A stretch of DNA of 64,000 bases from Anaerolineae bacterium (lineage in GTDB: Bacteria > Chloroflexota > Anaerolineae > CG2-30-64-16), in NCBI GenBank assembly GCA_040772005.1, contig JAXGYZ010000002.1, positions 573,061 through 637,060 on the forward strand. The letters run 5' to 3'. The position numbers and the translations under genes were made by a program. Below the pieces are notes generated by a model. That model was not told where the DNA came from. It saw only the letters and a program-made list of their open reading frames with translations, and did no database searches. Positions 6,597 to 43,626 of this stretch are shown in pieces; positions within the stretch are counted from its first letter, which is position 1, and every line of letters starts with the position of its first letter.

Positions 6597-7919
6597 ATGC
6601 GCAACCCAATTCTCGAGGCACCCACACACCTCAAGCCCGAACCCTCCGCTGCCGCGCTGCACCCTGAACAGGACCTTTGGGACACCGTTTTGGCCTCCCT
6701 GGATGACGTCGCCGCGCGCCTGAACCTGGATCCCGGCCTCCACGCGATCCTGCGCGAGCCTGAACGCGAGCTGACTGTGGCCGTGCCGGTCAGCATGGAT
6801 GACGGCTCGACGAAGGTGTTCAAGGGCTACCGCGTGCAGCATTCATCGGTGCGCGGCCCCTGTAAAGGGGGGATTCGCTATCATCCGGATGTCAACCTGA
6901 ACGAAGTCAAGGGCCTGGCCGCGATGATGACGTGGAAGTGCGCGGTCGTCGATATCCCGTTCGGCGGCGCGAAGGGCGGCATCCAGGTCGATCCCACGGG
7001 CATGTCACAGGGCGAACTTGCCCGCATGACCCGGCGCTTTACCTCGATGATCCTGCCCATCCTGGGCGGCAAGCGCGACATCCCCGCGCCCGACGTGAAC
7101 ACCAACGCACAGGTCATGGCCTGGATCGTGGACACGGCGAACATGATCGAGGGCGTCCATATCCCCGAGATCGTCACCGGCAAGCCGTTGTCGTTGGGCG
7201 GCTCGCTGGGCCGCAAGGAGGCCACCGGCCGCGGGGTCGCCATCGTCACCGGCGAGCTGCTCAAGCGGGAGGGCCGGGCCCTGTCCGACACGACGGTTGC
7301 GGTGCAGGGGTTCGGCAATGTCGGCTCCTGGGCCGCGCGCATCCTGCGCGACATGGGCTGCAAGATCGTGGCCATCAGCGACGTAAGCGGCGGGCTGTAC
7401 AACGCGAACGGGCTGGACCTGGCCGCAATCGACAAGGCCGTCGCCCAGCACCCGCGACACCTGCTCGAAGGGTATGCTGCGTCGGATGTCGATCGCATCA
7501 ACAACGAGGAACTGCTCGAGACGCAGGCCGATGTGCTGATTCCTGCGGCCCTGGAGCACCAGATTCGCGAGGACAATGCCGACCACATCCACGCGCGCTA
7601 CATCGTCGAGGGCGCCAACGGCCCGACGACGCGCGAGGCCGACGAGATCCTGGAGGGCAAGGGCGTCATCGTGGTGCCCGACATCCTGGCGAATGCGGGC
7701 GGCGTCGCGACCAGCTACCTGGAATGGGTCCAGAATCTCCAGAATTTCTATTGGGAAGAAGACGAGGTCAACCAGCGGCTGACGAGCATCATGAAGCGGA
7801 GCTTCGCAGGTGTGTGGGACTTCTCGCGGGCCCAGCCTGTGCCTATGCGCCTCGGCGCGATGATGCTGGCGGTGTCGAAGGTCGCGGAGACGGCGCAGCA
7901 GCGCGGCATCTGGCCTTGA
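6597..7919 (+). CDS. gdhA: Glutamate dehydrogenase (Glu/Leu/Phe/Val dehydrogenase family)
   Basis: Hallmark motif KGGIRYHPDVNLNEVKGLAAMMTWKCAVVDIPFGGAKGG; Rossmann GFGNVG. AAGGAGG-like RBS. Confidence 0.9.
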   Translation: MRNPILEAPTHLKPEPSAAALHPEQDLWDTVLASLDDVAARLNLDPGLHAILREPERELTVAVPVSMDDGSTKVFKGYRVQHSSVRGPCKGGIRYHPDVNLNEVKGLAAMMTWKCAVVDIPFGGAKGGIQVDPTGMSQGELARMTRRFTSMILPILGGKRDIPAPDVNTNAQVMAWIVDTANMIEGVHIPEIVTGKPLSLGGSLGRKEATGRGVAIVTGELLKREGRALSDTTVAVQGFGNVGSWAARILRDMGCKIVAISDVSGGLYNANGLDLAAIDKAVAQHPRHLLEGYAASDVDRINNEELLETQADVLIPAALEHQIREDNADHIHARYIVEGANGPTTREADEILEGKGVIVVPDILANAGGVATSYLEWVQNLQNFYWEEDEVNQRLTSIMKRSFAGVWDFSRAQPVPMRLGAMMLAVSKVAETAQQRGIWP

Positions 7920-7923
7920 GGAC

Positions 7924-8013
7924 GATTGAAGATTGAAAATTGAAGATTGAAGATTACAGACGAGGCGGCCATGTTTTGGCAATCTTCAATCTGTAATCTT
8001 CAATCTTCAATCC
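7924..8013. repeat. GATTGAA heptamer-repeat element forming a long perfect hairpin (gattgaagattacaga...tctgtaatcttcaatc)
   Basis: Tandem GATTGAA units in both arms; begins immediately after the gdh stop codon. Related copies at 12033-12106, 42848-42877 and 34635-34690. Confidence 0.7.
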
Positions 8014-8031
8014 GTAATCGTGGAGGGTGTG

Positions 8032-8517
8032 ATGGCGAAGAAGGAGACACCGGAGGGCGTGCCGGCGGTCGGTGAGATGGCGCCGGACTTCGAGCTGCCG
8101 GCGGACGACGGGACGACGGTGCGGTTGAGCGACCTGCGCGGGCAGCGGGTGATCATCTATTTCTACCCCAAGGATGACACGCCCGGCTGCACGACCCAGG
8201 CCTGCGGATTCCGCGATTCCTTCGTGGAAATCACCGAGAAGAACGGGGTGGTGCTGGGCATCAGCCCGGACGGGGTCAAGAGCCACGTCAAGTTCAAGAC
8301 GAAGTTCGACCTGCCGTTCCGGCTGCTGGCGGACGAGGAGCGCAAGGTGGCGGAGCTATACGGAGTGTGGCGCGAGAAGACCAACTATGGCAAGACCTAT
8401 ATGGGGATTGTCCGCTCACACTTCGTGGTCGACGAGGAAGGCAAGCTGGCGGACGTGCAGTACGACGTCAGCCCGACCGTGAGCGTGGAGAGCGCGCTGG
8501 CAAGCCTGCGGCTGTAG
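8032..8517 (+). CDS. bcp: Peroxiredoxin Bcp (thiol peroxidase, bacterioferritin comigratory protein)
   Basis: YFYPKDDTPGCTTQACGFRD motif. GGAGGG RBS before the ATG at 8032. Confidence 0.85.
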   Translation: MAKKETPEGVPAVGEMAPDFELPADDGTTVRLSDLRGQRVIIYFYPKDDTPGCTTQACGFRDSFVEITEKNGVVLGISPDGVKSHVKFKTKFDLPFRLLADEERKVAELYGVWREKTNYGKTYMGIVRSHFVVDEEGKLADVQYDVSPTVSVESALASLRL

Positions 8518-8612: not shown

Positions 8613-8690
8613 CAAAGCAGCCCGAACGCATGACGGATCGGGCGCGCGATAGAGCCTGAATACATCTTGACTACCAGCGGAGGGCGAACC

Positions 8691-10001
8691 ATGGCATCTC
8701 GTCTCATCACATGGCTCGAACCGCTGTATCTGCTTGCGATTGCTCCGCTGCTCCTCTTTCCTACGGTACGACCGATCTGGACCGCAGCGGCGCTTGCCCT
8801 CTTAGCCCTGGTTTGGCTGTTGCGGGCGTTCCTCCGCCGGGAGGTCTGGCCCGTCACGCCGTTCAACCCGGCGCTGCTGCTGTTCTGCCTGGCGGTTCCT
8901 CCGGCCGTATGGGCGTCCGCCTTTCCCGAACTGACCCTTCCCAAGCTCACCGGCCTGATCCTGGGGCTGGCAGCCTTTCGCGCGACGGGCTTTTTGGCTG
9001 CCACGCCGCGGGGACTTACGGTTATCCTCACGGTGTTCGGTCTCCTCGGCGCGGGCATGTGGGCGGTGGGATTGCTCGGCATCCAACTGCCAATCCTCGC
9101 GCCCCTGGTCCACCGCCTGCCATCTGCGTTGGTCAGCCTGCCCGGCGCACCCGAACAGGGCATCAACCCGAACCAGTTGGCCGGCGTCCTGGCGCTGTAT
9201 CTGCCCTTCGTTCTTACATGGCTGCTCGTCTGCTTGCGGCGACGGCAGATCGTCTGGGCCGTCTTGCTTGGACTGGTCGCGCTCGCAGGCGCGGCAACCC
9301 TGCTCGTCACGCGTTCGCGCGCCGGCATAGTGGGCATTGCCGCAGCAGTCACGGCACTCGTCATCGTGTCCGTCTACCGGGAAGGCAGCTTGCGGCAGAA
9401 GCGGTGGGTCTCGGTTGCGGCCCTGGTCACCGTGACGGCAGGGGTGGTCGCGGGGGGAGTGTTCCTTCCGACATGGTTTGCCGGGACCGTTGCGAGCAGT
9501 CAGGTGGAGGCGCCGCTCGGAGATGCATTGCGGCAGCTATCGCTGGAAGGGCGGGTCGAAATCTGGTCGCGCGCACTGTACGCGCTGCAGGACTTCCCAT
9601 TCACCGGCGTCGGGCTGGGCACGTTTCGCCGGGTGGTCAACCTGCTTTACCCGCTGTTCCTCATCCCCGCCGACATCGACATCGCGCACGCGCACAACAT
9701 CTTCCTGCAGGTGGGCGTGGACCTCGGGCTCGGGGGACTGGTGGCGTACGGCGCGTTATTACTGGTTGCAGGGGCGGTGGCGTGGCAGGCCATACGGGGA
9801 GAAGACAGGATGCGGGGCCACATCGCGCTGGGGTTGCTGGCGGCGCTGATCGGGCTGCACGTCTACGGGTTGGCCGATGCGCTGGCCCTGGGTTCGAAGC
9901 CCGGGCTGGCGTTCTGGCTGGCGTTGGGGGTGCTCGGAGCCTTGGCGCAATTGCCGAGCGAGCAGCATAGGGACAAGGCGCCTAATTCGGGGGTTTTCTG
10001 A
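8691..10001 (+). CDS. O-antigen ligase family membrane protein (WaaL/Wzy_C-like)
   Basis: Polytopic membrane protein with a periplasmic loop containing RxxxxW...GVGLGTF and HAHNIFLQ motifs. GGAGGG RBS before the ATG at 8691. Confidence 0.7.
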   Translation: MASRLITWLEPLYLLAIAPLLLFPTVRPIWTAAALALLALVWLLRAFLRREVWPVTPFNPALLLFCLAVPPAVWASAFPELTLPKLTGLILGLAAFRATGFLAATPRGLTVILTVFGLLGAGMWAVGLLGIQLPILAPLVHRLPSALVSLPGAPEQGINPNQLAGVLALYLPFVLTWLLVCLRRRQIVWAVLLGLVALAGAATLLVTRSRAGIVGIAAAVTALVIVSVYREGSLRQKRWVSVAALVTVTAGVVAGGVFLPTWFAGTVASSQVEAPLGDALRQLSLEGRVEIWSRALYALQDFPFTGVGLGTFRRVVNLLYPLFLIPADIDIAHAHNIFLQVGVDLGLGGLVAYGALLLVAGAVAWQAIRGEDRMRGHIALGLLAALIGLHVYGLADALALGSKPGLAFWLALGVLGALAQLPSEQHRDKAPNSGVF

Positions 10002-11170: not shown

Positions 11171-13135
11171 TCAGCCTGCTGCAGGGGGCGTGTGCTGGGG
11201 AGGTGCACCGTCGTGCTGATAGGCGGGCACGAGGATGCGGAAGGAGGCCTCGAGTGCGGCCGTGTCGCCGCGATAGGCGGCCTCGATCAGCCGCGCGACC
11301 TCCGGCTCCAGGAGGTCCTGCCGGCCGTTCTGCGCGACGAAAATCTTCTCGTGCCGGGTACGGCCATACTCCTCATCGGCTGCGAACAGCTCCTCGAACA
11401 GCTTCTCGCCGGGGCGCAGGCCCGTGAAGCGAATCTCGATGTCGTGCTCCGGCTCCAGGCCCGACAGCCGGATCAGGTCGCGCGCCAGGTCGACGATGCG
11501 GACGGGCTGGCCCATGTCGAGCACGAAGACCTCGCCGCCGTGGCCGAGCGCCGCGGCCTGGAGCACGAGCTGGACCGCCTCGGGGATGGTCATGAAGTAG
11601 CGGCGCACGTCGGGGTGCGTCACGGTGACGGGCCCGCCCGCGGCAATCTGGCGCTGGAAGAAGGGCACGACACTGCCGCGACTGCCGAGCACGTTGCCGA
11701 AGCGCACGGCGACGTAGCTGCAGCCGGTCTGCCGCGCGGCGGCCTCGACGAGCAGCTCCGCGATCCGCTTCGTGACGCCCATGACGTTGGTCGGGTTGAC
11801 GGCCTTATCGGTGGAGATGAGGACGAAGCGCTCGACCCCGGCAGCAATGCTGGCCTCGACCACGCGCTGCGTGCCCAAGATGTTGTTGAGCACCGCGTCG
11901 ACCGCGTTGTCTTCCATCAGCGGGACATGCTTGTGCGCGGCCGCATGGAAGACGATCTCGGGACGGTGCTCCGCAAAGACCGCGGCCAGGCGTTCGGGGA
12001 AGCGGATGTCGGCGATCACGGGTTGCAGATGCGATTGAAGATTGAAGATTGAAGATTGGAGGTCTGCGGGGTTCGTCTTCAATCTGGAATCTTCAATCTT
12101 CAATTCGTTATGGATGTCGAAGATGCTGTTTTCGCCGTGGCCGAGGAGGATGAGGCTGGCGGGGCTGCAGCGGAGAATCTGGCGGCAGAGCTCGGAGCCG
12201 ATGGAGCCGCCCGCGCCGGTGACGAGGACGCGCTTGCCGCGGAGCAGCGCGGCCACCTGGGCCGTGTCGGTCTGGATGGGGGCGCGGCGCAGGAGGTCCT
12301 CGATCTGGACATCGCGCAGTTGCTGGAGGCGGACGGCGCCGCCCAGCAGCTCGTAGATGCCCGGCACGGTGCGGGCGCGCACGCCCGCGGCCTCGCAGAT
12401 CTCCACGATATCGCGGATGGCCGCGCCGGGTGCGCTTGGCATGGCGATGATGACCTGCTCGATATGGTGTTCGCGGGCCAGGTCGGGGATGCGCTCGCGG
12501 CCGCCCAGGACGCGCACGCGCTGGAGCAGCATTCCGTGTTTGAGCGGGTCGTCGTCCACGAACCCGAGGGGCACCAGGCCGGTCTGCGGGTTCTGGCGCA
12601 GCTCCCGCAGCACCATTGCGCCCGCCTCGCCCGCACCGGCTATGAGGACATGCTGGAGCGGGCCGCCGGGAGCGCCGGCCTTGCGCGCGCGCTGTGCACC
12701 GAGCGCCCCGGCGCGCAGCGCGAAGCGTGACCCGGCAATGACCGCGAAGGTCACGAGCACGTCGATCAATGGGATGGAGCGCGGGACGCCGGGGGAGAGC
12801 AGCGCAGGGAAAATCGCCTGCGTGCCGAGGAAGAGCGCCCCCTGGGCCAGCGCACCGAGTGCCGCAGACCAGACGAGCAGCATCATCTCGTCCGGCCCCG
12901 CGTACTGCCAGTAGCGCGTGTAGAGGCCGAGCACGCTGAAGATGGGTATCTTGATGAATGGGGCCGCGATTACAAAGATCAACATCGTCCGCACGTAAGG
13001 CTGGAGCTGCGCGGTGTCCAGGCGCAGGGCGAACGCGAGCACCGCAGCCATCGGCACGAGCAGCATATCAGCTGCCAGCAGGTGCCGGTTGCGCACGCGC
13101 AGCAGGAGCTGCGTAAGGCCATATGAGTGTGTCAT
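11171..13135 (-). CDS. Membrane-anchored nucleoside-diphosphate-sugar 4,6-dehydratase/epimerase (CapD/WbpM/PglF family)
   Basis: N-terminal TM helices, then LVTGAGGSIGSEL Rossmann, then the catalytic STDKAVNPTNVMGVTKR. Start (13135) overlaps the upstream stop (ATGA). Contains an in-frame heptamer-repeat insertion. Confidence 0.8.
   Translation of the reverse strand: MTHSYGLTQLLLRVRNRHLLAADMLLVPMAAVLAFALRLDTAQLQPYVRTMLIFVIAAPFIKIPIFSVLGLYTRYWQYAGPDEMMLLVWSAALGALAQGALFLGTQAIFPALLSPGVPRSIPLIDVLVTFAVIAGSRFALRAGALGAQRARKAGAPGGPLQHVLIAGAGEAGAMVLRELRQNPQTGLVPLGFVDDDPLKHGMLLQRVRVLGGRERIPDLAREHHIEQVIIAMPSAPGAAIRDIVEICEAAGVRARTVPGIYELLGGAVRLQQLRDVQIEDLLRRAPIQTDTAQVAALLRGKRVLVTGAGGSIGSELCRQILRCSPASLILLGHGENSIFDIHNELKIEDSRLKTNPADLQSSIFNLQSHLQPVIADIRFPERLAAVFAEHRPEIVFHAAAHKHVPLMEDNAVDAVLNNILGTQRVVEASIAAGVERFVLISTDKAVNPTNVMGVTKRIAELLVEAAARQTGCSYVAVRFGNVLGSRGSVVPFFQRQIAAGGPVTVTHPDVRRYFMTIPEAVQLVLQAAALGHGGEVFVLDMGQPVRIVDLARDLIRLSGLEPEHDIEIRFTGLRPGEKLFEELFAADEEYGRTRHEKIFVAQNGRQDLLEPEVARLIEAAYRGDTAALEASFRILVPAYQHDGAPPQHTPPAAG
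12033..12106. repeat. GATTGAA heptamer-repeat hairpin element lying in-frame inside the capD-like CDS (encodes ...ELKIEDSRLKTNPADLQSSIFNLQS...)
   Basis: Same element as 7924-8013. The reading frame of the host gene is maintained across it. Confidence 0.65.
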
Positions 13136-14211
13136 GGATTGGATATGCCTTTTGTCGGGCCGCGCTGCTGCTCGTGAGAGCGAACAAAGTACCAGAGACT
13201 GAATGCCGCTACTGGGATCACGATTGCGATTGATAGAGATACTCCTGGCACAGACTGTACCCATGCAACAGCCAGCACTCCACCAAGAGCAGCAAGGGAT
13301 GCGTAGAGTATTGTGACGCTCTTGTGTGAATGGTCGAGGATTATCAGGCGCTGGTATAGATGTGATCGGTGTGCTGCAAAGACATTCTCATGGCGCACAA
13401 GTCTTCGCAGAAATGTGAAACTCGCATCGAAAACGAATGGCCATACAGCCAGTAGGCCTACTAGTGCCATTCGATGATCTTGTTGGTGTGCGGCAATTGT
13501 CAGTGTTGCGAGGACCGATCCAATGAAAGCACTGCCCACGTCGCCCATGAAAATGCGGGCTGGGGGCCAGTTGTCAGCAAGGAAAGCCGCACTTGCTCCG
13601 GCCAATACCAACCCTGTCAATCCGACACCCGTTAATCCGCTGGTGAACCCTACCACTGCCCAGGTGATTCCAGCGATAACGGCTTGGCTTCCCGCAATGC
13701 CGTCAATCCCGTCCATAAAGTTATAGGCATTGGTCAAGCCGACTAACCACATAAGTGTCAACGGCACACCCATCCATGCAAGGTGGATCTCTCCAATCAG
13801 AGGAAGCGTGATCAAATCCCAGTAGTCGACGCCGAGCATTATCGTAAGGGCGGCTAGAATGTGAGCAATCAGTCGGACTAAATTAGGTAGTGAACGAAGG
13901 TCGTCTATCAAGCTCACCAAGGCGACGAGAGTCCATGCGGCCGTGACTAGCAGTAGAGCAGTCCAGTAGGCTGAGGCGAAGGCGACGTTGGCGGATACAG
14001 TCAGAGCAATTGTAACAACTACAATGGCGAGACCTCCACCGCGCGGGATTGGTCGGCTATGGGAACTGCGTTCGTTTGGGATATCCAGGATCATATGATC
14101 CTCTGCAAATTGCCTGATCGCACGCACGCCCAGCCGCGACAGCAGGTAAGCACATGCGGCTATGATGCCGAGGGCCAGTGGGGCGATTTGAGGGGTCTCT
14201 TCACTCAGCAC
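13132..14211 (-). CDS. Undecaprenyl-phosphate sugar-1-phosphate transferase (WecA/WbpL-like; MraY/GT4 family)
   Basis: DIPNERSSHSRPIPRGGG and NAYNFMDGIDGI motifs; 10-11 TM helices. GTG start at 14211 chosen (overlaps the upstream stop by 11 nt). The TTG at 14319 would overlap 118 nt. Confidence 0.7.
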   Translation of the reverse strand: MLSEETPQIAPLALGIIAACAYLLSRLGVRAIRQFAEDHMILDIPNERSSHSRPIPRGGGLAIVVVTIALTVSANVAFASAYWTALLLVTAAWTLVALVSLIDDLRSLPNLVRLIAHILAALTIMLGVDYWDLITLPLIGEIHLAWMGVPLTLMWLVGLTNAYNFMDGIDGIAGSQAVIAGITWAVVGFTSGLTGVGLTGLVLAGASAAFLADNWPPARIFMGDVGSAFIGSVLATLTIAAHQQDHRMALVGLLAVWPFVFDASFTFLRRLVRHENVFAAHRSHLYQRLIILDHSHKSVTILYASLAALGGVLAVAWVQSVPGVSLSIAIVIPVAAFSLWYFVRSHEQQRGPTKGISNP

Positions 14212-15214
14212 TTGGGAGAACCCCGGAACGGCGCATTTCTGCGATGGTATCTTGCCAACCGAAAGATAAGTTATAGGCAGGCATGAAGTTGAGCTCCTGC
14301 ATGATCTTTGACCCGTCAACTGCTACGTTTTCAAGATACCTTTGCAGCATAGTACTGCTGACAGGCAACGGGTGTTTGATGATGCGTGAGAAGCCATCCG
14401 CAATCCGAAGCCCAAGCCGAATAGGCGCGACAGGCAACGCAATGTGCGGCGGTGGACGGCCTAGCCCATCGCAGATCGCTTCGATGATCTCGTGCAGCGA
14501 GTGGGTCTCGCCATCCGTCACATTATATATCTGCCCTGCTGCGCGAGGATGCTCGATGGCCGCCTGCACCGCGTTCGCCATGTCTTTATCGTAAATCAGC
14601 GTGCGCCGATTCCCACCGCTACCGATGGGCACAAAGCGCCTTTGCGATAGTGCGTACACGAGTCGGCTATAGTTGCCTTTGACGCGGCTGCCATACACTG
14701 ACGCAAGCCGGAGCACCACACCTAGCGGACCACCGTCCGGGCCTGCTGCAGATAACACGATGCGTTCGGCGGCGAACTTCGTTTTTGCATAGTACGTATC
14801 TGGCATGACCGATGATGACTCGTTAAGGAGGCCACCCATTCCAGCACCGTAGACGGCGATCGTGCTCAGGAAGACCAATCGCCGTACGCCAGCGCACCGG
14901 GCAGCTTCCACAACGGTGGCCGTCCCTTGCACGTTGACCCGCTCATACTCGGCATATAGATGCTGCGCTGGATTGCTGATGTGAAGAAGAGCGGCCATAT
15001 GAACAACATGAGTTACGTCTCGCATGGCCGCATCAATGAGATACTGGTCACAGATATCCCCAGTTAACCAGTCGTTGAGTTTTGCCTTAAGGGCTGCGGG
15101 TGGTTCCTGCAAGGCTAAACCACGGACGCGGTAGCCACTGGCGGCCAACTGATTGACAACCGTGGGTCCCAACGCGCCGGTGGCACCGGTAACAAGGATC
15201 AGCCGCTCATCCAT
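14201..15214 (-). CDS. NAD-dependent epimerase/dehydratase (SDR family; UDP-sugar 4-epimerase-like)
   Basis: LVTGATGALG Rossmann motif, YAKTK catalytic motif. ATG overlaps the upstream stop (ATGGATGA). Confidence 0.8.
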   Translation of the reverse strand: MDERLILVTGATGALGPTVVNQLAASGYRVRGLALQEPPAALKAKLNDWLTGDICDQYLIDAAMRDVTHVVHMAALLHISNPAQHLYAEYERVNVQGTATVVEAARCAGVRRLVFLSTIAVYGAGMGGLLNESSSVMPDTYYAKTKFAAERIVLSAAGPDGGPLGVVLRLASVYGSRVKGNYSRLVYALSQRRFVPIGSGGNRRTLIYDKDMANAVQAAIEHPRAAGQIYNVTDGETHSLHEIIEAICDGLGRPPPHIALPVAPIRLGLRIADGFSRIIKHPLPVSSTMLQRYLENVAVDGSKIMQELNFMPAYNLSFGWQDTIAEMRRSGVLPSAE

Positions 15215-24539: not shown

Positions 24540-25104
24540 CCGAATAGGACACTGATTGAACTGATTGGACTGATCTTCATGTTCTTTTCAGATTCGGCTT
24601 CAGGTGATTCTCGAAGATCTTGCGCACAACGCGAGGCTTGGGACCGAAGTTGACGACCAGTCCGACCTCATAGGGCGTGGCTTTCAGATAGTTCAGCAGC
24701 TGCGCCGCATGGTCCGGTGATATCTCGCTGGCAGCCTTGAGCTCCAACAACACGAGGTCGTTCACGACGAGGTCGGCAAAGTACTCACCCACGATACAAC
24801 CGTCGAAGAACACCGAGATCGGCCGCTGCTGCTGAACCTGCAGGCCATGCGCCCGGAGCCGCATGGCGAAGGCATTCTCATAGACCTTCTCCAGGAAGCC
24901 ATAGCCCAGGGCGTTGTAGACGTCGTAGAATATCTGGATTATCTGCCGGGTCAGCGCACTGTGCTTGTAAGTGGAGACCTCGTACGAACCCCGTTCCTCG
25001 TCCAGTTCGATCATGGTCACATCACTCATAAGACTGATGACGCTAACTTATCAGAATCAGATCAGGTAAATCAGCGTCATCAGTTCAATCAGCGTCCTAT
25101 TCGG
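24540..25104. mobile_element. 565-bp cassette bounded by 24-bp inverted repeats CCGAATAGGAC(A/G)CTGATTGAACTG, carrying a GxxExxY-family gene
   Basis: Left repeat at 24540-24563; right repeat at 25081-25104 is its reverse complement (23/24 identical). The interior is AT-richer than the flanking rfbA and sat. Confidence 0.5.
24577..25029 (-). CDS. GxxExxY protein (PD-(D/E)XK nuclease-like superfamily, TIGR04256-type)
   Basis: [13 protein letters not shown]... and [14 protein letters not shown] core. About 150 aa, typical of the family. Confidence 0.65.
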
Positions 25105-29895: not shown

Positions 29896-30276
29896 GCCGA
29901 TTGGGGGTGGGCGAAGTCATGTTGCAATCGGGCCTTCCACCTGGCAGTTGAAACTGCGGCTACCCCTACGAAACCGGCCTACGCCGGTTAGTTCCAGTCT
30001 GCGTAGGCAGACTTCGCAAGGGTAGCCGCAACTTCAGTTGCCAGGCGGGTTCACCTGGCGCACTATGAAACCGCCCTGCCGATTGGAGGACAGGGCGAAG
30101 TCATGTTGCAATCGGGCCTTCCACCTGGCAGTTGAAACTGCGGCTACCCCTACGAAACCGGCCTACGCCGGTTAGTTCCAGTCTGCGTAGGCAGACTTCG
30201 CAAGGGTAGCCGCAACTTCAGTTGCCAGGCGGGTTCACCTGGCGCACTATGAAACCGCCCTGCCGATTGGGGGACA
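29896..30276 (+). repeat. Tandem array (about 2.1 copies, period 184 bp) of the family-D highly structured element
   Basis: Units start at 29912 and 30096, with a partial unit end at 29896-29911. Each unit has a ~26-bp outer stem (cctggcagttgaaactgcggctaccc / gggtagccgcaacttcagttgccagg) with G·U wobbles. Each also has two perfect 7-bp hairpins (aaccggc-CTAC-gccggtt; agtctgc-GTAG-gcagact). Confidence 0.7.
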
Positions 30277-30340
30277 GGGCGCTAAAGCGCCTACTACGAA
30301 CGGGAGCAAGCTATTGGTTTGTAGCAGGCGCAGGTGCGCC
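30277..30340. repeat. Family-E hairpin repeat (GGCGCTAAAGCGCC-TACTACGAAC ... GTTTGTAGCA-GGCGCAGGTGCGCC)
   Basis: Related copies at 40634-40715 and 54720-54781. Confidence 0.5.
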
Positions 30341-34634: not shown

Positions 34635-34690
34635 GATTTCAGATTGAAGATGTGCGCAGCGAAGCTGCGCCAAGATTGAAGATTATGGGC
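34635..34690. repeat. Degenerate GATTGAA-family element (agattgaagat-hairpin-aagattgaagatt)
   Basis: Two partial heptamer-repeat arms flank a small gcgcagc/gctgcgc hairpin. Confidence 0.4.
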
Positions 34691-40722: not shown

Positions 40723-40894
40723 CGAAATCATGTTGCACTCGTGCCTTCTGCCTGGCAGTTGAAACTGCGGCTACCACTGCAAAACCGACCTGCGTCGGTT
40801 AGTTTCCAGTCTGCGAAGGCAGACTTCGCAACGGTAGCCGCAACTTCAGTTGCCGGGTGGGTTCACCTGATGCACTCTGAAACCGCCCTGACGA
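40723..40894 (+). repeat. Family-D structured element, diverged single copy (about 88% to array units)
   Basis: Stems are preserved by compensatory changes (aaccgac...gtcggtt versus aaccggc...gccggtt). Confidence 0.6.
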
Positions 40895-41538: not shown

Positions 41539-41596
41539 GACAGGATTGACAGGATTGACGGGATTATTCCTGTAAATCCTGTCAATCCTGTCCAGT
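41539..41596. promoter_or_regulatory. Long imperfect palindrome of CAGGATTGA units in the divergent promoter region (operator candidate)
   Basis: gacaggattgacaggattgacgggatta / ttcctgtaaatcctgtcaatcctgtc, with 17 bp of exact complementarity. Lies between the divergently transcribed 41489 and 41686 genes. Confidence 0.4.
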
Positions 41597-41685
41597 ATCG
41601 CCTCTGGTTTTCACATGGGACTGAGTATAGCTGGCAGAAACCGCGCGTGTCAATGCCCGTATGTATCTGGTGAGGATGGAGTGGT

Positions 41686-42867
41686 ATGCCCGAACCATCG
41701 GTCCTGGGGGTCTTCGGTGCGGTGATTCTCGCGCGGCTGCTCCTGCCGCTGCTGATCCCGAAATATCCGCTGCCCGCGATCCTCCTCTGCCTCCTCGTGG
41801 ACGGGGTGGACCAGACCGTCTTCCAGACTTTCACGAACGTGCCGCTCGACGGCTATCAGAGCTTCGACAAGGCGCTCGACATCTATTACCTGGTCATCGC
41901 ATATCTCTCGACGCTGCGCAACTGGCGGAACAGCCATGCATTCGGCATCAGCCGTTTTCTGCTCTATTACCGGCTCGTCGGCGTCGTGCTGTTCGAGCTG
42001 TCGGAGTGGCGGCCTCTGCTGCTCATCTTCCCGAACACTTTCGAGTACTTTTTTATTTACTACGAGGCTGCGCGCAGCGGGTGGCACGCGTCGCGGCTCT
42101 CGCGCCGGACACTGCTCCTGGTAGCCGGGGGCATCTGGGTGTTCATCAAGCTGCCGCAGGAGTGGTGGATCCACATCGCGCAACTCGACGTGACCGACCT
42201 GGTCAAGACCAAGCTGTTCGGCGCAGCGGCCAATGCATCCTGGGGCGAGGCCGTCGCAGCCGCGCCACTCGTCCTGGCCGCGCTGCTCGCTACGGTGCTG
42301 CTGCTGGCGTTCGCCGCCTGGCGGCTGGTCATTCCCCGGCTGCCGCGGCCGGAGCACTCGTTCAGGCTGTCGGCGGGCCCGCCGCCCGCGGCCGCGGACA
42401 CCGCGGAGGAACGCCGCACCATCTTCGCCTACACGCGGCGGCCGTTGGACCGCATCGCGCTGGAGAAGGTCGTGCTCGTGACCCTGGTCACGCTGATTTT
42501 TGCGCAAATCCTGCCCGACTTGCAGTCGAGCAACCTGCGGCTGGCGCTGGGCGTGACAGTCATCGCGCTCATCAATTCGGTGGCGAGTTACGGACTGGCG
42601 CACCGCGGCTACGGCTGGCAGAACGCGCTCGTGCATTTCGCCGTACTTGGCACGGTGAACGCCGGTGTCGCGGCTGTCGCTTACCTGCTGTTCGACCTCG
42701 GCCGGCCCATCAACCTGGGGGATGCGTTGTTCCTGTTGCTGCTGCTTACATTGCTGGTCACGCTCCACGACTACTACCAGCCGATGCACGCGGTGCGGTT
42801 CGACGCAGAGGCGCGGGCGGCGAGCGCGATGGTGGGCGAGGGCGGACGATTGAAGATTGAAGATTGA
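41686..42867 (+). CDS. Hypothetical polytopic membrane protein (393 aa)
   Basis: GGAGTGG RBS. About 9 predicted TM segments. The C-terminal ...GGRLKIED* and stop codon are supplied by the GATTGAA repeat. Confidence 0.55.
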   Translation: MPEPSVLGVFGAVILARLLLPLLIPKYPLPAILLCLLVDGVDQTVFQTFTNVPLDGYQSFDKALDIYYLVIAYLSTLRNWRNSHAFGISRFLLYYRLVGVVLFELSEWRPLLLIFPNTFEYFFIYYEAARSGWHASRLSRRTLLLVAGGIWVFIKLPQEWWIHIAQLDVTDLVKTKLFGAAANASWGEAVAAAPLVLAALLATVLLLAFAAWRLVIPRLPRPEHSFRLSAGPPPAAADTAEERRTIFAYTRRPLDRIALEKVVLVTLVTLIFAQILPDLQSSNLRLALGVTVIALINSVASYGLAHRGYGWQNALVHFAVLGTVNAGVAAVAYLLFDLGRPINLGDALFLLLLLTLLVTLHDYYQPMHAVRFDAEARAASAMVGEGGRLKIED

Positions 42868-42877
42868 AGATTGGAGA
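42848..42877. repeat. GATTGAA heptamer repeat (4.3 units) spanning the stop of the upstream gene and the RBS of the next
   Basis: gattgaagattgaagattgaagattggaga. Confidence 0.6.
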
Positions 42878-43537
42878 ATGGAAACGAACATGAGCCGGTT
42901 AGATTTGTTGGCACAGATTCGGGAGCAGGTGGGGGAGCGGCTGGAGGATGGTCGGGTGCAGGGGCGCATGACTTTCTGCATCGAGGACGGCGCGCGGCTC
43001 GGCCCGGAGGCGCGGGAGCCTGCCGGTTACCGCCACGGTTCGCACTTTCACCCGCGCGCGTTCATCTTCGACCCCGTCACGCGGTTCGAGTTCCGGCCCG
43101 ACGGCGAGCTGCTACACTTTGCGGTGGGCGGGCTGCTGTGGCGGGAGGAAGGGGACGGGCCGCGCTACTGCCTGTTCCGGCGGCGGATGCACCCGACGGG
43201 CTATTACACGCTGCCGGCGGGCCACCTGGAACTCGGTGAGACGCCGGACCTGACGCTGCGCCGCGAGGTGTACGAGGAGACCGGCCTGGCAGTGCTCTCC
43301 GCGGAGCTGCTGTTCGAGGGCGAGCTGCCGGACGACTGCCGCCGCGGGGCAGATTACCACTACTGGCACGCGTACCTGTGCCGCTGCATCGGGGAGCCGG
43401 CGCTCTGCAACGAGTCGGACATCGTCGGGTGGTACACGCGTGCAGAGATCCTGCGCGACCTGCCGCTGACCTACCCGACCGGCGTGATTTGCGAGCGGCT
43501 GTTCGGTGAGTGGCCGGGCCGCGTGCGGGGGAGATAA
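42878..43537 (+). CDS. NUDIX hydrolase
   Basis: Nudix box GHLELGETPDLTLRREVYEETGL. Start at 42878 (GGAGA RBS) or 42890. Confidence 0.65.
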   Translation: METNMSRLDLLAQIREQVGERLEDGRVQGRMTFCIEDGARLGPEAREPAGYRHGSHFHPRAFIFDPVTRFEFRPDGELLHFAVGGLLWREEGDGPRYCLFRRRMHPTGYYTLPAGHLELGETPDLTLRREVYEETGLAVLSAELLFEGELPDDCRRGADYHYWHAYLCRCIGEPALCNESDIVGWYTRAEILRDLPLTYPTGVICERLFGEWPGRVRGR

Positions 43538-43626
43538 CCACGGAAGACGCGGAGCACACGGAATGACAAAATAATCTATCTGTTCCGCGTGCTCCGCGTC
43601 TTCCGCGGTTCCTATGGAGCAATCCG

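Follow-up and report, generated by a model that had tools for sequence, protein, structure and literature searches.

Between positions 12033 and 12106 of a 64-kb stretch of Anaerolineae DNA (hereafter the window), a 74-nt element built of the heptanucleotide GATTGAA is translated in-frame within an open reading frame (ORF) on the minus strand, 11171–13264, that codes for a PglF/WbpM/CapD-type UDP-GlcNAc 4,6-dehydratase. The element is probably a heptanucleotide-repeat hairpin resembling the cyanobacterial repeats known as STRR (short tandemly repeated repetitive), tolerated in a permissive surface loop of the enzyme and evolving by slippage together with array turnover.

In our reading, the element is a pair of inverted heptanucleotide simple sequence repeat (SSR) arrays, located where helix alpha2 is joined to strand beta3 at the surface of the Rossmann domain in a PglF/WbpM-like dehydratase. 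Since three units of 7 nt make 21 nt, an array is translated as a 7-residue periodic peptide (LKIED.R or LQSSIFN), which the loop could tolerate as a helix extension followed by a disordered stretch. Selection would keep the array open by removing the in-frame TGA, while slipped-strand gain and loss of units, combined with unit turnover or replacement, would let the array evolve far faster than the gene, so that relatives with ~98% identical flanks carry unrelated arrays. A change of three units would alter the length of the loop in-frame, and a change of one unit would frameshift the gene. The mechanism generating the arrays is likely to be slippage, not transposition.

The repeat element and its host gene

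On the plus strand, the letters of 12033–12106 are GATTGAAGATTGAAGATTGAAGATTGG / aggtctgcggggttcgtc / TTCAATCTGGAATCTTCAATCTTCAAT, corresponding to 3.7 copies of GATTGAA, a spacer of ~15 nt and four copies of TTCAATC. Tandem Repeats Finder reported the first array (x3.7, 100% match) at 12033–12058 and the inverted one (x4.1, period 7) at 12076–12104, and an inverted-repeat scan gave arms of 28 nt with 89% complementarity, separated by 15 nt. Both arrays have at least three 7-nt units arranged head to tail, as in heptanucleotide SSR or STRR-like arrays. The features of the element and of its host gene are the following:

11171–13264, minus strand: PglF/WbpM/CapD-type UDP-GlcNAc 4,6-dehydratase, membrane-anchored (from Pfam, PglF in the PDB and superposition of the AlphaFold2 model)
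12023–12100, minus strand: enlarged alpha2-beta3 connection, K389–Q414, 26 residues versus 10 in the family
12076–12106, minus strand: 5' arm, ATTGAAGATTGAAGATTCCAGATTGAAGA when read in gene sense, which codes for E387-LKIEDSRLK-396; imperfect GATTGAA array
12086–12088, minus strand: stop-removing codon TCC (Ser393), at the site of the TGA in a perfect GATTGAA array
12061–12075, minus strand: spacer or hairpin loop, 15 nt, encoding roughly T397-NPAD-401; unlike the spacer of the intergenic copy
12033–12060, minus strand: 3' arm, (CAATCTT)n when read in gene sense, which codes for L402-QSSIFNLQS-411; perfect 3.7 units

The 3' arm is the most slippage-prone part of the element. A pattern of two GATTGAA units, allowing up to two mismatches, matched 19 times in the window versus 0.10 times expected from shuffles, and the matches grouped at 7924–8012, 12033–12105 and 42848–42875, apart from isolated two-mismatch matches at 34635 and 52233; GATTGAA therefore recurs beyond chance at three loci within 64 kb. 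The RNA of the loop segment, taken from the transcribed strand, folded at −29.2 kcal/mol (z = −6.45), a value equalled by none of 200 shuffles. Searching the window against Rfam at gathering thresholds matched no family, and a promoter and terminator scan called no terminator-like site at the hairpins of 12033–12106 or 7924–8013, leaving a role as a classical intrinsic terminator unsupported.

The dehydratase ORF has 697 aa, while the database proteins P0001 (the window's own) and P0002 have 654 and 649 aa, respectively; from this difference in length, P0001 probably starts at about Met44 of the ORF. Pfam assigned PF02719 (E = 4.9e-118) and CoA_binding_3, and the search against the PDB returned PglF (5BJU, E = 1e-89). 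The sequence STDKAV lies at residues 483–488, with the catalytic T-D-K motif at 485–487; in the alignment S484, D486 and K487 were invariant and T485 was at least 90% conserved. The host protein has the Polysacc_synt_2 domain, the fold of extended short-chain dehydrogenases/reductases (SDRs) and the T-D-K motif. As originally predicted for a capD/wbpM-like gene, the repeat is read in-frame, and the ORF runs uninterrupted through 12033–12106 as ...NELKIEDSRLKTNPADLQSSIFNLQSHLQPVIADIR and, over a longer stretch, as ...GHGENSIFDIHNELKIEDSRLKTNPADLQSSIFNLQSHLQPVIADIR....

As a family baseline, we compared the DNA between the GHGENSIF and PVIADIR codons at ~200 homologue loci listed by scans of genomes and metagenomes. 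The protein-alignment scan of genome contigs, whose listed matches were all at most 55% identical and which missed the close relatives, and the scan of metagenomes by a degenerate GHGENSIF pattern, which returned mostly Anaerolineales with canonical loops, both served for this purpose. The segment measured 48 nt (16 aa, e.g. EIQQELKRKYPELNLV) in ~170 of the 200 listed loci, including most Chloroflexi, versus 96 nt and 32 residues in the window protein, which is therefore longer here by a net 48 nt (16 aa). Counted after the residues NEL, there are 10 residues in the canonical family and 26 in the window protein, so that the previously estimated 9 versus 26 was essentially right, and the homologue alignment placed the enlargement at the repeat, as had been proposed. 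Alignment with PglF (5BJU) likewise opened an 18-residue gap in PglF exactly at the loop. The insertion was first put at ~50–75 nt; besides lengthening the loop, the 74-nt array takes the place of ~26 nt of native sequence. The arrays extend from right behind the Glu-Leu codons to the beginning of strand beta3. Among the loci returned by the metagenome scan, arrays were present only in L088 and L138, the former a more distant relative with an 8-nt repeat unit.

The AlphaFold2 model of the window protein had a mean pLDDT of 82, with an extended helix at 380–397, pLDDT below 50 at 401–407 and the next strand at 412–417. Using Foldseek, the model superposed on PglF 5BJU with a TM-score of 0.91 and 43% identity over the catalytic domain, and related entries behaved likewise. 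In the model, the insert therefore lengthens a helix and adds a disordered loop, while the remainder of the fold is like that of PglF, in line with the tolerated surface loop of the original prediction. In extended SDRs, the alpha2-beta3 connection sits at the periphery of the Rossmann fold, and this position, together with the low confidence of the model, suggests that the loop is solvent-exposed.

Repeat occupancy, turnover and slippage in the clade

Among the best 120 database homologues (55–100% identity), the loop was hypervariable; it was scored in 119 of them. It exceeded the canonical length by at least five residues in 104 of these 119 close relatives and was canonical in only 5. Within the loop peptides of the clade, identity at an offset of seven residues reached 13.9% versus 7.0% in shuffles (z = 15), a support that no other offset approached, the next being offsets 4 (z = 2.7) and 14 (z = 2.1). 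Since three 7-nt units make seven codons, this periodicity is the signature of translated 7-nt repeats. We also compared the loop DNA of the window with that of ten syntenic relatives (11 loops, the relatives designated by L numbers), which contained the following arrays:

Window, L082, L204 and L209: GATTGAA / TTCAATC
L081 and L205: GGTTGAA / TTCAACC
L208: GGTTGGA / TCCAACC
L203: GGAAGCT / AGCTTCC
L206: GGAGACA x9, then AATCGCA x6; non-complementary
L207: GGAGTCA x7, then CACGTAT x4; non-complementary
L210: no repeat

Strong hairpins were predicted in 8 of the 11 loops (z between −5.4 and −7.4), the others being those of L206 (z = +0.18), L207 (z = +0.74) and L210 (z = −1.3). Across 229 kb of close-clade loci, period-7 arrays occurred at 15.3 per 100 kb, versus 3.9 (period 5) and 0 (period 8), so that period 7 was in excess over the nearby periods not divisible by three; these arrays were mostly confined to the dehydratase loop and to the spacer between gdh and ahpC. 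The original prediction would have been contradicted by relatives that lack GATTGAA and have an equally long loop. Formally such relatives exist, with segments of 135 nt (L203), 138 nt (L208) and 129 nt (L206), but their loops are themselves arrays of other heptamers, so that a repeat-colonised loop with fast turnover throughout the clade is the better reading.

The turnover was most evident in L203, whose protein (cluster P0005) is ~98% identical to that of the window on either side of the loop and whose DNA is 92–100% identical in the 40-nt windows adjoining it, while the loop itself is a GGAAGCT hairpin of ~115 nt versus the 74-nt GATTGAA hairpin of the window. When the loop was masked, a neighbour-joining tree showed the loop types interspersed, with P0005 (CTGGAAR type) nested within the GRTTGAA-type clade. 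The units GATTGAA, GGTTGAA, GGTTGGA, AGTTGGA and AGCTGGA form a path of single substitutions, and the loop peptides of L203 (LRKLETGDWKLET) and L208 (LKGLEVGRWKLES) are visibly homologous, which makes evolution of the unit in place possible. Ectopic replacement is possible too, given that GATTGAA and CTGGAAR arrays are both present in the gdh-ahpC spacers of L203 and L082. From these sequence comparisons, array turnover would proceed either by change of the unit in place or by replacement from other arrays. We also considered whether recombination had joined a variable N-terminal half to a conserved C-terminal half at the loop, and rejected this, because the identities on both sides track each other and the flanking DNA is 92–100% identical up to the loop.

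Translation of an ideal (GATTGAA)n array gives D*RLKIED*RLKIE, with one in-frame TGA in every three units, while the complement, (TTCAATC)n, is open in every frame. Where the ideal array has the stop, the window reads LKIED-S-RLK, and all six GATTGAA or GGTTGAA orthologues read LK[IV]E[DGSN]-x-[RK] with no in-frame TGA. The stop position is occupied by TCC in the window, L082, L081 and L205, by TCA in L209 and by a rewritten unit, AAT GAA, in L204. In the window, the TCC substitution at Ser393 accounts for the main internal mismatch in the hairpin stem. Chance survival of the frame was rejected, since the unit is altered exactly at the position of the in-frame TGA in all six orthologues; the pattern suggests selection for an open array, the in-frame TGA having been mutated away.

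Natural alleles that differ by whole units were found in the clade. The contig of P0121 (L211, GCA_048223075.1) and L203 (GCA_048222975.1) agree at every position of a 210-nt stretch, apart from exactly one CCAGCTT unit that is deleted; L203 has three of these units and L211 two. As a result, the gene of L211 is split into ORFs of 388 and 281 aa, the new TGA overlapping the GTG of PVIADIR, and the P0005 cluster, which includes P0121, accordingly contains a 388-aa protein that ends in ...EASFQLPASRR. A second case was read from proteins: the tail of P0175 (3 contigs) corresponds to a +1-frame reading of P0116 after loss of 7 nt in an AATCGCA-type array. In addition, the loops of P0156 and P0157 differ from that of P0060 by 7 residues (21 nt), and the genes of P0172/P0173 and P0154/P0155 are broken in or next to the loop. 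Breaks located in the loop thus affected 4 of 21 clusters at 90% identity, the loop representing only ~5% of the gene.

When the loss of one unit was simulated in the window, the protein ended at residue 413 as ...SSIFNRICNP*, with a TGA at CCC-GTG-ATC; gain or loss of three units kept the frame, while a one-unit change shifted it. As in SSR contingency loci, the unit is not a multiple of three and lies within a reading frame. Whole-unit alleles that toggle the frame were verified in DNA for L203/L211, which carry another unit, and deduced from protein for P0116/P0175. Unit slippage at the arrays of this clade is real and inactivates the gene, and the window's own array probably slips as well. 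The slippage put forward in the original prediction gained direct support from a sister lineage; adaptive phase variation of the glycan operon is a hypothesis only.

Other repeats and the gene neighbourhood

Two further GATTGAA loci lie outside the dehydratase gene:

7924–8013, plus strand: intergenic GATTGAA/GATTACA arrays in inverted arrangement, with gdh (stop at 7919) on one side and an AhpC/Bcp-type peroxiredoxin gene on the other
42848–42877, plus strand: single, non-inverted GATTGAA array (x4.3) that supplies RLKIED and the TGA stop of ORF 41686–42867

The copy at 7924–8013 retains TGA in all frames and folded as RNA at −45 kcal/mol (z = −6.84). It had been described as the same element as that in the dehydratase gene; the heptamer arms are indeed common to both, but each has a spacer unrelated to the other's and a different number of units. 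Orthologues of this gdh-ahpC spacer (7917–8034 in the window) were located at 14982–15178 in L081, 6968–7127 in L082 and 6082–6240 in L203. Heptamer arrays structured the spacer in 4 of 5 genomes, with units that differ or are nested: CTGGAAR arrays lie within a GATTGAA hairpin in L203, and in L081 the two sides differ, one carrying GGTTGAA and one TTCGTAA. The spacer of L209 is a GC-rich fold without arrays.

The array at 42848–42877 lies 12–40 nt upstream of a NUDIX gene (start at 42890), and all three forward frames terminate on its TGAs. ORF 41686–42867, which codes for a membrane-protein-like product, ends there as …GGRLKIED. An alternative, ORF 41661–42860, was rejected as the gene ended by this array, its translation being Arg/Ala/Gly-rich junk. 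Right behind the NUDIX stop, at 43536–43610, there is a strong hairpin with 28-nt arms (93% complementary).

The window has further repeats. Inverted arrays of a 9-nt unit (GACAGGATT x3 / AATCCTGTC x3) lie between ORFs at 41539–41592, with 25-nt arms (92% complementary) and a 4-nt loop, and form a second family of tandem-unit hairpins. At 29909–30281, a 184-nt unit occurs as a tandem duplicate with 99% identity, and both copies include a palindrome whose arms measure 48 nt (CCACCTGGCAGTTGAAACTGCGGCTACC...). The palindrome recurs in diverged form, as its third copy, at 40751–40857, making this a separate palindromic repeat family. A strong hairpin with 23-nt arms at 25033–25096 overlaps tandem repeats of 9 and 18 nt. 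Outside the window, positions 1879–1946 of L208 contain adjoining GGAGTCA-type and CAGCCGT-type arrays, read in-frame as ...EIRSQESGVRDQPSAVGRQSSAV... around residues 183–210 of a CapF-like protein with SDR and cupin parts, and in-frame heptamer arrays are therefore not limited to the dehydratase loop.

The dehydratase gene belongs to a cluster with genes for a family-4 initiating glycosyltransferase (Glycos_transf_4), an SDR, a GT4 protein, NTP_transf_5 and a Wzy-like protein (Wzy_C), and its nearest named relative, with 86% identity, is 'Chloroflexi bacterium ADurb.Bin325'. The Wzy_C gene (O-antigen ligase/polymerase-like, 8667–10001) is on the plus strand in the window, while in L081, L082, L203, L205 and L206 it is codirectional with the dehydratase and NTP_transf_5 genes (equivalent to the minus strand here); this difference in orientation looks like a single-gene inversion. 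In some of the listed loci, the tblastn match of the dehydratase spans ~2.8–2.9 kb versus the usual ~1.85 kb. These are L009, L011, L012, L016, L017, L018 and L020 from Anaerolineales, and L034 and L039 from metagenome-assembled genomes of Myxococcales or delta-proteobacteria. The additional ~0.9 kb falls within the N-terminal half, upstream of the loop, and could represent either a domain insertion or an intervening sequence.

Alternative explanations and comparison with known systems

The observed alleles raise the question of whether the array is a contingency locus, kept in the enzyme of the first committed step towards the surface glycan because a reversible one-unit change would switch glycan synthesis off and on, for example against phage or grazers. 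Such a role would fit a unit that is not a multiple of three, a 3' arm that is perfect for 3.7 units, the exact gene-splitting allele of L211 with its second, inferred counterpart in P0175, the concentration of breaks in a loop that makes up ~5% of the gene (4 of 21 clusters, including P0172/P0173 and P0154/P0155) and the equivalent TGA overlapping a GTG that a simulated one-unit loss produced in the window. The gene also has glycan genes as neighbours, among them those of a Glycos_transf_4 initiating transferase and of Wzy, and heptanucleotide phase variation of a pgl gene has been documented (PMC7157529). However, the tracts are short (3–4 units) with interrupted 5' arms, truncations outside the loop are similarly numerous in the same data, and ten further clusters that we examined had no loop breaks. 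Many relatives, moreover, carry degenerate arrays or non-repeat loops (L210 and the PDSPCPP type), which counts against a selected switch, since such a switch should not decay in this way; we regard the contingency locus as unlikely. A broader version, in which the loop is a hypermutable cassette throughout the clade, its inverted arrays being actively generated or exchanged by an undescribed mechanism such as hairpin-templated or array-to-array conversion and retained as a reversible glycan switch, is distinctly unlikely in our judgement. If true, it would mean an STRR-like contingency locus in free-living Anaerolineae, outside the world of pathogens.

The palindromic form of the element, the identical arms at three loci in 64 kb and the clean replacement of loop content between close relatives could be expected of a mobile miniature element, such as a miniature inverted-repeat transposable element (MITE), a repetitive extragenic palindromic (REP) sequence or an element like the Rickettsia palindromic elements (RPEs), transposed in-frame into the gene as a discrete palindrome. 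In-frame palindromic insertions are known in Rickettsia, as summarised in PMC10969869, so that the tolerance which the original prediction called unusual has a precedent. Against mobility, junctions read by eye, with no dedicated search, showed no target-site duplication at GCAGATGC|element|TCGTTATG; the spacers of the copies are unrelated and their unit numbers differ; the copy at 42848–42877 has just one array, with no second arm to pair with; the arms consist of tandem 7-mers and not of unique terminal inverted repeats; and L206 and L207 carry two non-complementary arrays. A GATTGAA array of at least three units also brings an in-frame TGA, and a fresh insertion would thus be a null allele. 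Across the three window loci, the internal sequence and length conserved in MITEs and RPEs were not found. REP/REPIN elements are characterised by an extragenic location and an associated RAYT transposase; in the 64-kb window, one copy is intragenic. The one-off insertion of a discrete element, as it was originally envisaged, did not hold up, the copies having no common core, and we give mobility hardly any credence. Selection might instead act on the nucleic acid, the hairpin being the functional unit (an mRNA stabiliser, an RNase site, a translational pause or a replication or recombination signal) and the peptide its by-product. In favour of this, 8 of the 11 clade loops are strong hairpins despite their differing sequences, both arms changed jointly from GATTGAA/TTCAATC to GGTTGAA/TTCAACC in L081 and L205, and the orthologous gdh-ahpC spacer is always structured while its sequence varies. 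It is nonetheless very unlikely, considering that L206 and L207 have arrays without a hairpin and L210 has neither, that the 48-nt loop of ~170 of the 200 listed homologues leaves no room for a hairpin, that neither an Rfam match nor a terminator-like site was obtained, and that inverted arrays could stem from template switching instead of selection.

Several points weigh against a tolerated, slipping array as well. P0001, the window's own protein, and P0002 have identical loops, and arrays of just 3–4 units slip rarely. The alleles lacking 7 nt come from metagenome assemblies and could be artefacts of assembly or amplification, which is unlikely for a 21-nt tract, and about four truncations outside the loop in the same clusters (P0136, P0192, P0198 and P0215) indicate that some assemblies simply carry broken genes. 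The explanation also assumes that the loop peptide is functionally neutral. Finally, slippage alone leaves unexplained the consistent occupation of the dehydratase loop, the mostly inverted arrangement of the arrays and the swap to an array of unrelated units with intact flanks.

An excess of heptanucleotide arrays in some bacteria is a long-standing observation, and the origin and effects of these arrays are poorly understood. Here, one loop is occupied by arrays across more than 100 related genes, with differing units and near-identical flanks, a natural experiment in which array origin, turnover and slippage can be measured. The locus shows non-triplet repeats writing new peptide segments into an enzyme, and it can serve to test whether SSR contingency switches operate on surface glycans in environmental Chloroflexi as they do in host-adapted pathogens. 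For annotation, split PglF-like genes in assemblies of this clade may be repeat-slippage alleles and should be treated with caution. The literature searched contained no description of the full combination of inverted heptamer arrays in an Anaerolineae-type genome, translation within a Rossmann domain, a loop occupied throughout a clade by changing units, repaired stops and single-unit frameshift alleles.

The described STRR unit families of heterocystous cyanobacteria include CCCCAGT. STRR heptamers have been reported within the cyanobacterial RNase P RNA gene (Vioque 1997, as cited in PMC4748335 and PMC2858038). STRR arrays resemble the present ones in consisting of tandem 7-nt units in few copies, in having several unit families per genome and dispersed, mostly intergenic arrays, and in being able to occupy a permissive position inside a functional gene. 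The window differs in coming from Anaerolineae-type Chloroflexi and in its units (GATTGAA and others), and the arrays of its clade differ in being usually inverted pairs that are translated in an enzyme domain and occupy one loop clade-wide. Given the Chloroflexi relative (ADurb.Bin325) and the differing units, assignment to STRR proper was rejected, and the arrays are STRR-like only. RPEs, which are translated in-frame in protein genes (Ogata et al. 2000/2002, summarised in PMC10969869), share with the element a palindromic repeat that is read in-frame in unrelated enzymes of housekeeping type, at sites that the fold permits. According to that summary, however, RPEs are ~150 bp long with a conserved family sequence and peptide, whereas here only the 7-nt unit is common, its content turns over between near-identical genes and no conserved core was seen.

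Heptamer SSRs are over-represented in bacteria and vary between close relatives, with inverted heptamer pairs in Xanthomonas (PMC4692102), and the TAACTGA repeats of marine Beggiatoaceae have been discussed in terms of translation, stop codons and occurrence at ORF ends (PMC4679880). Like TAACTGA and the GGGAATC/GGGGAYT repeats of Xanthomonas and Nostoc (PMC4692102), the arrays described here are over-represented, mostly intergenic and variable in length; the stop-bearing orientation can end ORFs, as at 42848–42877, and the other orientation gives a 7-residue repeat. In those organisms, repeats within ORFs affect only protein termini or uncharacterised ORFs, while here they lie in the middle of a Rossmann domain, the stop-bearing orientation is repaired by substitution and the unit sequence, taken alone, gives no sign of G-quadruplex potential. 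In Neisseria, pglE is phase-variable through a heptanucleotide repeat (PMC7157529). The present tracts differ from this repeat in having 3–4 units embedded in a hairpin, reversible switching being a proposal only, and in belonging to an uncultured host known from metagenome assemblies, with relatives that include an anaerobic-digester bin, and not to a host-adapted pathogen. As in pglE and other SSR contingency loci (PMC4235727), on the other hand, a 7-nt repeat lies in the coding region of a glycosylation gene, where a change of one unit frameshifts the gene and natural one-unit alleles, such as those of L203 and L211, occur.

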